A stretch of 64,000 nucleotides of DNA, from assembly GCF_003334305.1 (NCBI RefSeq), contig NZ_QOWS01000009.1; one strand, written 5' to 3'. The notes beneath the pieces were generated by a model. It did not search any database and had not been told where the DNA came from. It saw only the letters and a program-made list of their open reading frames with translations. Each line of letters starts with the position of its first letter. The first letter of the stretch is position 1. A program made the position numbers and the translations under genes. This DNA is from Escherichia coli. Its GTDB lineage: Bacteria; Pseudomonadota; Gammaproteobacteria; Enterobacterales; Enterobacteriaceae. Positions 51,883-55,321 of the stretch are shown here, piece after piece.

Positions 51883-52595
51883 CTCTTTTCCGGGTGGAGT
51901 CGCCGTAAATGGTACTCCACCTGGTATTCGCTGGCATTTCTGAACATCACTGAATAATTCAAAAACTCCCCGCTCTCGCTATATGACAACGAGGTGATCC
52001 GCAGCAGTGGCGTGTGTTCCGCTACCTTCATTTGCCGCGCCAGCAGTCTATCGGCGAGCACCGGCGTCAGGCTTTCATAATTACCGCCAATCAAAATCCC
52101 GCACTCTTGTCCAATATATTCAAACTTCGACCCTTCCAGATGTTGCAGCGAAAGATTACGGAACAGTTTAACCGGCATATAGCTGTCTTCCAGCATCAGC
52201 GGTTTCCCTTCCACAAAACGAACGCGACGGGAGAAGTAGATCTGCTCGTTGATTTGAATCCGTAACTGGCTGGCAATGGCCGGAGGCGCAGGCATGATTT
52301 CAAAAATCAGCACCTGGCTGGTGACCGTTTTTCCCTGCCGTTTTAACACCTCCACCAGTCCGGTCAGGCTGGCGGTTTGATGCAGCACATCTTTGCGCAC
52401 CAGGTAAGTGCCGCTGCCGTGGCGGCGGACCACCAGCCCCCACGCTACCAGCAGGTCAATCGCTTTACGGATGGTCATCCGGGATACTGCAAATTCTTCC
52501 GCCAACTTTTTTTCACCGGGAAGAAGGCTGTTTAGCGTGAAATCCGCGGAATTAAGTCGAATTCTTAACCGCTCCGCAATGCTTTTGTAGATCAT
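51879..52595 (-). CDS. yidP: GntR-family transcriptional regulator
   Basis: Start set at [49 protein letters not shown] (wHTH); 238 aa; the supplied ORF extends further upstream. Confidence 0.8.
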
Positions 52596-52890
52596 CTCTA
52601 GATCTCTTTTTTGCCTGCAAGCCCGGGTAATGCGCCCACAAGTTCTGCTTAATCGATTGAAAAAACATCTTTTTTTTAAAGATGTGTTCGATGCTGTGTA
52701 CCAGTGCTCACAGATGTCTACTTTTTCGCGAAAACGTAGATCTCTACCGCCCAACGAAAAGCATGAAAGCGATCACGAATCCCATTGGGTCGTCATGTTC
52801 TGCCGATCGCATCTTCCTATCCTCGCTCCAGGCCTGCCGCATAACCAATCAGGCTTCCTACTTACAGAATTGAGAAAAGAGGATGTGGAA

Positions 52891-54507
52891 ATGCTCAGTC
52901 AAATTCAACGCTTTGGCGGCGCGATGTTCACGCCAGTGCTGCTGTTTCCCTTCGCCGGGATTGTGGTGGGTCTTGCCATCTTGCTGCAAAACCCGATGTT
53001 TGTCGGGGAATCACTGACCGATCCGAACAGTTTATTCGCGCAAATCGTACACATTATTGAAGAGGGCGGTTGGACGGTATTCCGTAATATGCCGCTGATT
53101 TTTGCTGTCGGTTTACCCATTGGCCTTGCTAAGCAAGCGCAGGGGCGTGCTTGTCTGGCGGTGATGGTGAGTTTCCTGACCTGGAACTATTTCATCAACG
53201 CGATGGGAATGACCTGGGGAAGCTACTTCGGCGTCGATTTCACTCAGGACGCGGTGGCAGGTAGAGGTCTGACAATGATGGCCGGGATTAAAACCCTCGA
53301 TACCAGCATTATCGGCGCAATTATCATTTCCGGCATTGTGACGGCGCTGCATAACCGTCTGTTCGATAAAAAACTGCCGGTTTTTCTCGGCATTTTCCAG
53401 GGGACGTCTTATGTGGTGATTATCGCCTTCCTGGTGATGATCCCCTGTGCCTGGCTGACATTGCTCGGCTGGCCAAAAGTACAAATGGGGATTGAATCTC
53501 TGCAAGCGTTCCTGCGTTCGGCGGGTGCACTTGGGGTCTGGGTTTACACCTTCCTCGAACGTATTCTGATCCCAACCGGTTTACACCACTTCATCTACGG
53601 ACCGTTTATCTTTGGTCTGGCAGCTGTTGAAGGCGGCATTCAGATGTACTGGGCGCAGCATCTGCAAGAGTTCAGTCTGAGCGCCGAGCCGCTGAAATCG
53701 TTGTTCCCGGAAGGCGGTTTTGCCCTGCACGGTAACTCAAAAATCTTTGGTGCCGTGGGCATTTCTTTAGCGATGTACTTCACTGCCGCACCGGAAAATC
53801 GGGTAAAAGTGGCGGGCTTGCTGATTCCCGCAACCTTAACCGCCATGCTGGTGGGAATTACCGAACCGCTGGAATTTACCTTCCTGTTCATTTCACCGTT
53901 GCTGTTTGCGGTACACGCCGTGCTGGCGGCCTCAATGTCGACCGTAATGTATCTCTTTGGTGTGGTGGGCAACATGGGCGGAGGTCTGATTGACCAGGTT
54001 TTACCGCAAAACTGGATCCCGATGTTCAGCAACCACGCGGATATGATGCTGACCCAAATCGCCATTGGGTTGTGCTTTACCCTGCTGTACTTCGTGGTTT
54101 TCCGCACCCTGATTCTGCAGTTCAACATGTGCACGCCGGGACGTGAAGATGCGGAAGTGAAACTCTACTCAAAAGCCGAATACAAAGCCTCGCGAGGCCA
54201 AACCACCGCGGCAGAGCCAAAAAAAGAGCTGGATCAGGCTGCCGGTATCCTGCAAGCCCTGGGCGGGGTCGGCAATATCTCCAGCATTAACAATTGTGCG
54301 ACGCGTCTACGCATTGCACTGCATGACATGTCACAAACGCTGGATGACGAAGTCTTTAAAAAGCTGGGAGCGCACGGCGTCTTCCGTAGTGGCGATGCCA
54401 TTCAGGTGATCATTGGTCTGCATGTATCCCAGCTGCGTGAACAGCTCGATAGCTTAATTAATTCTCATCAATCAGCAGAAAATGTTGCCATTACGGAGGC
54501 AGTATAA
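52891..54507 (+). CDS. glvC: PTS alpha-glucoside-family EIICB component, apparently intact and fused
   Basis: Start set at ATG 52891 ([35 protein letters not shown]) preceded by SD aagagga; 538 aa; C-terminal EIIB motif NCATRLR; one continuous frame. Confidence 0.8.
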
Positions 54508-55321
54508 TGACCAAATTCTCAGTGGTTGTCGCAGGCGGTGGAAGCACCTTTACGCCAGGCATCGTGTTGATGCTCCTGGCGAATCAGGAGCGTTTCCCGC
54601 TTCGTGCACTGAAATTTTATGATAACGATGGCGCGCGGCAGGAAGTGATTGCCGAAGCCTGTAAAGTCATCCTTAAAGAGAAAGCGCCGGACATTGCGTT
54701 TAGTTACACCACCGATCCTGAAGTGGCGTTCAGCGACGTTGATTTTGTCATGGCGCACATCCGCGTCGGCAAGTACCCGATGCGCGAACTGGATGAAAAA
54801 ATCCCACTGCGCCACGGTGTTGTTGGTCAGGAAACTTGCGGACCCGGCGGAATAGCGTACGGCATGCGTTCCATTGGCGGCGTCCTGGAACTGGTGGATT
54901 ATATGGAAAAATATTCACCAAATGCCTGGATGCTCAACTACTCCAACCCGGCAGCCATTGTCGCAGAAGCCACGCGTCGTCTGCGCCCGAATGCGAAAAT
55001 CCTCAACATCTGTGACATGCCAATCGGTATTGAAAGCCGGATGGCGCAAATTGTTGGGCTGCAAGATCGCAAACAGATGCGCGTGCGCTACTACGGCCTG
55101 AACCACTGGTGGTCGGCGATATCCCGCAGTTTCAGAAAGGGTTAATGAGTCAGCAAGTGGCGGTGGAAAAACTGGTCGTGGACGCCTGGGAACAGCGTTC
55201 ATATCAGCACCTGTGGCAGGCGATTACGTTGTCGAAAACGGTACCGAGCGCCTCGGTCGCCAAAGCTATTCTGGATGAGTTGCTGGAGGCCAACAAAGCG
55301 TACTGGCCAGAGTTACGTTAA
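54507..55321 (+). pseudogene. glvG: 6-phospho-alpha-glucosidase (GH4) remnant, frameshifted and shortened
   Basis: N-terminal 212-aa ORF (54507-55145) with NAD-binding [12 protein letters not shown] and the GH4 catalytic region NICDMP; the frame changes near 55100 to a 70-aa ORF (55109-55321) resembling a GH4 C-terminus. Combined length is far short of the ~440 aa typical for GH4. Confidence 0.7.

Follow-up and report, generated by a model that had tools for sequence, protein, structure and literature searches.

A glv allele common in Escherichia coli: an undivided glvCB permease gene beside an internally deleted 6-phospho-alpha-glucosidase gene

The closest described relatives of the glv locus of Escherichia coli pair an EIICB permease of the phosphoenolpyruvate (PEP)-dependent phosphotransferase system (PTS) with a hydrolase of glycoside hydrolase family 4 (GH4). 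In Klebsiella pneumoniae the pair is AglA and AglB, drawn from the same EIICB and phospho-alpha-glucosidase families and following the same two-gene logic as glv; in Bacillus subtilis it is GlvC (MalP) and GlvA (MalA), a maltose PTS permease and GH4 enzyme of the same families, more distantly related and functional in that organism. With AglA and AglB, E. coli grows on isomaltose, methyl-alpha-glucoside, and sucrose isomers; in this host Klebsiella AglA relies on the resident EIIA-Glc (crr), as does B. subtilis GlvC (PMC5309279). GH4 enzymes of this type require NAD+, Mn2+, and a 6-phosphorylated substrate (PMC10628242). The homologues of aglA and aglB in K-12 have been called cryptic or truncated (PMC5309279), and K-12 glvC', treated as a pseudogene, has served as a neutral site for integration (PMC3467084). 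We consider here the glv locus in a stretch of 64,000 nucleotides of E. coli DNA (contig NZ_QOWS01000009.1 of assembly GCF_003334305.1), referred to below as the window.

In the window, an undivided gene of 538 codons, glvCB (52891..54507, plus strand), encodes an alpha-glucoside-type PTS EIICB, and directly after it lies an 815-bp remnant (54507-55321) of glvG, the gene for a 440-amino acid (aa) GH4 6-phospho-alpha-glucosidase. Unlike the situation in Klebsiella, the counterpart of AglB has suffered an internal deletion, and the system cannot work. The reading we favor, with a probability of about 0.8, is that this is an agl/glv-type operon in the allelic form most frequent in E. coli, broken at the step of hydrolysis, with glvCB most likely a relic so far spared inactivation.

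The operon consists of a regulator (yidP), a PTS EIICB permease (glvCB), and an NAD+/Mn2+-dependent GH4 6-phospho-alpha-glucosidase (glvG). In strains where it is intact, a phosphoryl group would pass from PEP to EI, then to HPr, to EIIA-Glc (Crr), and finally to Cys469 of GlvCB. An alpha-glucoside would thereby be imported as its 6-phosphate, which GlvG would split into glucose-6-phosphate and the aglycone. The dependence of GlvCB on Crr is inferred by analogy with AglA and GlvC. In the window, one deletion of 508 bp between 8-bp direct repeats has destroyed glvG, so the pathway is broken at hydrolysis and the locus would give no support to growth on alpha-glucosides. Strains with the deletion, K-12 among them, would then not be expected to use alpha-glucosides of the isomaltulose type unless a phospho-alpha-glucosidase were supplied. 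The substrates are likewise inferred, and so is the view that the permease is neither expressed nor functional.

The hydrolase gene and its 508-bp deletion

A reading of the window made from the sequence alone had described the hydrolase gene as split into a 212-aa open reading frame (ORF) containing NICDMP and a 70-aa ORF in another frame, through both a frameshift and an internal deletion. The split is evident in the sequence: the first ORF occupies 54507-55145, the second 55109-55321 in a different frame, and the two overlap by 37 nt. The shift of frame and the loss of an internal segment are both real as well, but they are the result of one event and not two. In a three-way alignment of the window with O157:H7 and K-12 MG1655, one gap, 508 bp long, is the sole insertion or deletion in the region, which rules out a frameshift separate from the deletion. 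The gap is flanked in the intact allele by two copies of the 8-bp direct repeat GAACCACT, and the same alignment places the one remaining copy, at the deletion junction, at 55100..55107 (plus strand). The 508 bp amount to 3 x 169 + 1, i.e., 169 codons plus one base, so one deletion accounts at once for the missing residues and the change of frame.

What remains of the gene can be stated in the numbering of the intact enzyme. Codons 1-200 lie at 54507..55106 (plus strand), and the frame continues from there for 12 further codons, out of frame, up to a stop at 55145; codons 368-440 and the stop codon lie in their original frame at 55100..55321 (plus strand), a segment that includes the 70-aa ORF. 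Codons 201-367 are lost outright, and the repeat codon on either side is lost in part; with them goes roughly 75% of the C-terminal domain. A tblastn search with the intact O157:H7 enzyme gives the same picture, with residues 1-207 falling at 54507-55121 in frame 3 (97% identity) and a second match, of residues 367-440, at 55097-55318 in frame 2 (100% identity). The 212-aa ORF contains the complete Pfam Glyco_hydro_4 N-terminal domain (PF02056, positions 2-182 of 183), and in the C-terminal piece Glyco_hydro_4C (PF11975) is cut down to positions 164-211 of 211. By these matches and those of the transporter given below, the two genes are real ones and not chance ORFs. A GH4 enzyme of this kind has about 440 residues and two domains; the window provides just 200 + 73 in-frame codons, in two frames, and no 440-aa GH4 ORF can be recovered in it.

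The 212-aa ORF retains the N-terminal NAD-binding glycine motif, NICDMP (Cys169 and Asp170), and GLNH (His200). We take Cys169, Asp170, and His200 to be the equivalents of B. subtilis GlvA Cys171, Asp172, and His202, presumed metal and acid-base residues. Tyr263, which we take to be the counterpart of the catalytic Tyr265 of GlvA, falls inside the deleted part. Since residues 201-367, and with them the substrate-binding part of the C-terminal domain, are absent from the DNA, a glvG product could not, as judged from what is encoded, be active.

The intact form of the gene can be seen in O157:H7 strain F1273, which has the same locus, the same gene order, and a 538-aa GlvCB (WP_000952127.1), with about 99% nucleotide identity to the window outside the deletion. 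This strain retains the 508 bp and encodes a 440-aa GH4 protein with both Pfam domains (WP_000160122.1). The intact O157:H7 enzyme aligns end to end with the protein of structure 6DUX (439 residues, 912 bits), which we take to be the Klebsiella enzyme, and likewise, at 747 bits, with that of 1U8X, the maltose-6'-phosphate glucosidase of B. subtilis.

The dead hydrolase does not set this strain apart from K-12. K-12 MG1655 shares with the window the chromosomal site (flanked by yidE-yidP and yidL-yidK), the length of the remnant, and the identical 508-bp junction, and its glvG is annotated as a pseudogene of 815 bp (b4556). A gene list based on W3110 names glvC, glvB, glvG, and ysdC (PMC10652928); from the gene order, ysdC is probably the small C-terminal piece of glvG.

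In strain M6, codon 407 of the remnant has changed from CAG to TAG (position 55217 in the window), as expected of a pseudogene. In HS-02, a T-rich insertion of 26 bp (resembling TTTTTTTTTTGTTTTTTGTGGGAAA) stands exactly at the junction (about 3040-3066 of the locus), making a remnant of 841 bp. This was considered as an independent second deletion allele and rejected, as it is the same 508-bp deletion plus the insertion. The insertion could be real, or else an artefact of long-read assembly.

The transporter gene and the alleles of the locus

The frame of glvCB runs uninterrupted from ATG at 52891 to TAA at 54505-54507, as the sequence-only reading had it. The ORF defined mechanically reaches upstream to 52630, but the start in all orthologues and RefSeq annotations is at 52891. 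GlvCB matches TIGR02005 (an NCBIfam model of PTS IIBC proteins specific for alpha-glucosides) at 951.6 bits, above a cut-off of 607.3, with residues 2-523 covering positions 1-524 of 524. It also matches TIGR00852 over residues 60-358 and TIGR00826 (EIIB_glc) over residues 410-509, and Pfam matches to PF02378 (PTS_EIIC) and PF00367 (PTS_EIIB) are precomputed for a cluster representative 99.6% identical to it (P0001). The domains are thus in the order C then B within one polypeptide, and no EIIA-family match is among the profile results for the protein. Among solved structures, those closest to it are EIICB entries specific for glucose, and the identity is low. Two motifs show little or no variation in the protein alignment: the EIIC motif GITE, residues 322-325 (53854-53865), and, within the EIIB motif NCATRLR, Cys469 (54295..54297, plus strand). 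From general knowledge of the PTS, Cys469 is presumably the site of phosphorylation.

K-12 differs from the window at 21 positions over the 2727-bp region, and one of these divides its transporter gene. Codon 369 (53995..53997, plus strand) is CAG (Gln) in the window and TAG in K-12, a change of C to T at 53995 seen in the alignment and in the K-12 annotation. The amber codon splits the transporter of MG1655 into glvC (b3683, 368 aa) and glvB (b3682, 161 aa), with the annotated GlvB restarting at Met378. The sequence-only reading was therefore right that the K-12 transporter is split: K-12 has no single glvBC ORF, and aligned with its two pieces the gene in the window is undivided. Relative to K-12, then, the state of disruption differs in the transporter only and not in the hydrolase.

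That reading had also taken the permease to be intact, which holds for glvCB at the level of the ORF only. Two replacements, both present in the window and not in K-12, fall at positions that are otherwise invariant among orthologues, conservation at such positions being taken as a sign that a protein is undamaged. At codon 125 (53263..53265, plus strand) the window has AGA (Arg), whereas 16 of the 18 E. coli sampled have AGC (Ser); at codon 243 (53617..53619, plus strand), ten residues past the GLHH motif, the window has CTG (Leu) and 15 of the 18 have CCG (Pro). Both Ser and Pro are found in 13 of 13 aligned orthologues (those of O157:H7, E. albertii, Enterobacter, Phytobacter, and Mangrovibacter, together with metagenome proteins). 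Within the sample, S125R is confined to the window and strain H15, and P243L to the window, H15, and EC18.

The frequencies of the alleles were taken from 5426 complete E. coli genomes; for probes of 81 bases, a single mismatch means 98.8% identity, so that the band of 99% or more consists of exact matches. DNA from glv is present in 4280 of the genomes and absent from about 1146. The identical deletion-junction 81-mer occurs in 2641, while 1653 have the 508-bp segment and with it the intact hydrolase, as in O157:H7; in agreement with the size of the latter class, the junction probe is found as two pieces 508 bp apart in 1628 further genomes. Among 25 fetched loci, 14 have the exact 32-mer of the junction. 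The probe for the K-12 amber codon matches 348 genomes, and the carriers among the matches listed (ER1709, ET12567, BM28, and MC4100) are all four laboratory strains. The two replacements are rare: the exact 81-mer with the S125R base occurs in 9 genomes and that with the P243L base in 246. The deletion, a single old one, is thus found in about half of sequenced E. coli, and the configuration in the window, which the sequence-only reading proposed to compare across genomes, is not a special one but the commonest allele of the species. The fused glvCB is the norm, and the split of glvC from glvB in K-12 is the exception.

In genomes of the UTI89, JJ1886, and NGF1 kind, which are among those listed without glv, just 57% of the flanking query is matched. 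UTI89 has a 3.4-kb deletion of yidP-glvCB-glvG (about 51929-55350 in the window; 1687-1781 in the UTI89 locus), which leaves some 50 bp of the 3' end of yidP beside yidE and removes the last 30 bp or so of yidL, so that yidL ends differently there (867 nt as opposed to 894 nt). The remnant of yidP indicates that the absence of glv from UTI89 is secondary, and, together with synteny in E. albertii, rules out that UTI89 never had the module. In E. albertii (JARAMU010000016.1, 3001-5864) the same synteny is found with a 440-aa hydrolase possessing both Pfam domains, so the module is an old one in Escherichia. As for the deletion in glvG, strain OkiPb01688 is of the intact type, yet its glv region is only 12 bases from that of K-12 outside the deletion (its yidL is truncated). 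Such closeness implies that the deletion arose on, or recombined onto, a nearly identical haplotype.

K-12 and thousands of RefSeq genomes already carry annotations of the locus, and nothing about it is new in kind. The literature searches yielded no paper joining "6-phospho-alpha-glucosidase", E. coli, and "pseudogene", and nothing specific on palatinose or turanose phenotypes. The split in K-12 is a peculiarity of one lineage, due to one amber codon, and annotation carried over from K-12 gives a wrong picture of most E. coli. The label that the Prokaryotic Genome Annotation Pipeline gives to the full 538-aa EIICB, "PTS sugar transporter subunit IIB", understates the protein; it apparently comes by way of the equivalog NF007255, a model derived from the K-12 GlvB fragment of 161 aa (372 bits over residues 378-538). 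The four states of the locus (intact; 508-bp deletion; this deletion with the amber codon; loss of the whole module) could serve as a marker, and the graded decay across Escherichia as a teaching example of operon erosion, but the components are all known, and the import of the case goes little beyond bookkeeping. K-12 has other sugar PTS operons that common strains cannot use, bgl and chb/cel. Those are silent through their regulation and can be reactivated by mutation, whereas glvG has lost 508 bp and cannot revert.

The permease gene: leftover or retained

If the pathway is broken at hydrolysis, then glvCB is most likely a silent or weakly expressed leftover, not yet inactivated. The alternative that survives best, though we regard it as improbable, is that selection has kept GlvCB as an orphan permease after the loss of GlvG, still expressed and still useful. 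It might import an alpha-glucoside and leave the 6-phosphate to another enzyme or a phosphatase, or it might serve PTS signalling as a sensor or sink. Variation within the species bears on the choice, and it was followed in 18 sequences, 11 with the deletion and 7 without.

Several observations weigh against a simple leftover and in favor of retention. The 538-codon ORF is whole in all ten of the wild deleted-type genomes sampled, and K-12 alone, among the 18 sequences, has a premature stop in glvCB. In the larger collection, glvCB probes of 81 bases are fully covered in 4273 of 4275 and in 4257 of 4260 of the genomes having them, and an identical GlvCB protein (WP_000952127.1) is found in genomes of the intact and the deleted type. 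The variants of glvCB that are private to deleted-type genomes comprise 15 synonymous and 6 nonsynonymous changes, a departure from neutral expectation, while those of the glvG remnant in the same genomes comprise 0 synonymous and 5 nonsynonymous changes, one of them the amber codon of M6. The two sets differ (Fisher p = 0.007). The skew toward synonymous change could mean that purifying selection on the permease has continued. As for the two replacements in the window, the solved EIIC structures are glucose-specific and distant in sequence, and the conservation of position 243 does not extend to that subfamily, so that a mapping of S125 and P243 on them says nothing about function. A stronger claim, at which the contrast between glvCB and the glvG remnant hints, is that purifying selection maintains GlvCB as an orphan permease in some 2600 E. 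coli genomes lacking the hydrolase. If that were true, the protein would have a job independent of GlvG, with the phosphate ester of its substrate processed elsewhere or with a role in PTS-based sensing. To that claim we give a shade less credit than to retention in general.

The counts, however, come from a small sample of 18 sequences, and the synonymous differences in glvCB are clustered, forming recombination mosaics that confound the comparison of synonymous with nonsynonymous change. Many of the synonymous variants counted as private may lie in recombined tracts and predate the deletion. When the private variants of deleted-type glvCB are set against all others, the difference is slighter (Fisher p = 0.06) and is confounded by the same mosaics.

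Other observations speak for decay. K-12 manages with an amber codon in glvCB, and the protein of the window carries its two replacements at positions invariant among orthologues. Among public E. coli and Shigella proteins, GlvCB has lost internal segments of 33-70 residues, in frame, in at least nine different ways. Two of these deletions that were traced, one in S. flexneri (P0005) and one in E. coli (P0008), both lie beside a glvG with the 508-bp deletion, and on the S. flexneri contig glvG is broken further. The converse state occurs in E. albertii, where a GlvCB without 25 residues, GITE included (an in-frame loss), adjoins an intact 440-aa GlvG. A substitute for the missing hydrolase is not at hand in the window, where tblastn finds no second GH4 gene. 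Finally, the B. subtilis permease or hydrolase supplied alone gives MG1655 no growth on the sugars tested, with the exception of methyl-alpha-glucoside (PMC5309279). A decaying operon, with glvCB as its leftover, fits these facts better. The glvG remnant itself behaves, to judge from the changes it has gathered, as a pseudogene.

There is next to no chance that the two pieces of the hydrolase still provide an enzyme, whether as a split protein or by programmed frameshifting at the junction. The completeness of the NAD-binding N-terminal domain, the survival of NICDMP and GLNH, and the 37-nt overlap of the ORFs might encourage the thought, but the missing 169 residues are not in the DNA, and no recoding can restore them. 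The C-terminal domain is left with only its end (positions 164-211 of 211), the counterpart of the catalytic tyrosine of GlvA lies in the deleted part, and the remnant gathers nonsense and missense changes, among them the amber at codon 407. The notion that the hydrolase gene is really intact, its deletion an error of sequencing or assembly, can be set aside with as little hesitation, given the identical junction 81-mer in 2641 independent complete genomes, K-12 MG1655 included, the alignment, and the absence of 508 bp, which is no homopolymer slip.

Flanking genes and control region

The order of genes around glv, taken from the ORF list of the window and from the annotation of a strain 100% identical to it over 7.9 kb, is ibpA-ibpB, yidE (plus strand), yidP (minus), the 538-codon PTS gene (plus), the 815-bp hydrolase remnant (plus), yidL (minus), yidK (plus), and yidJ (plus). 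The stop codon of glvCB and the ATG of glvG overlap by one base (TAATG, 54505-54509), an arrangement that suggests translational coupling. At the other end of the remnant, the stop codons of glvG and yidL overlap by 4 bases on opposite strands (TTAA, 55318-55321). The gene yidL (55318..56211, minus strand), convergent with glvG, encodes a regulator of the AraC family.

Divergent from glvCB lies yidP (51879..52595, minus strand), an ORF that bears this label in every E. coli record fetched and encodes a regulator of the GntR/HutC family. YidP has NCBIfam matches to the GntR family, with scores under the equivalog cut-offs. From its position, it is presumed to be the repressor of the operon. The glv regulator of B. 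subtilis belongs to another family.

Between yidP and glvCB is a control region of 295 bp (52596..52890), in which a search for inverted repeats found two palindromes, at 52662-52688 and 52712-52745, with the half-site AGATGT/ACATCT in common. Both are possible operator sites for YidP. A scan for matches to the sigma-70 consensus promoter, limited to that consensus, found none in 52500-55500, where 2.3 would be expected; one CRP-like match with 2 mismatches (52697-52712) is no better than chance, and Rfam gave no match to a structured RNA or riboswitch at E <= 0.1 across 51500-56500. In strains MMC-J-0050 and GF4, the glvCB-glvG pair is intact, yet yidP is annotated as frameshifted. If YidP is a repressor, expression of the operon might be constitutive in these two strains.

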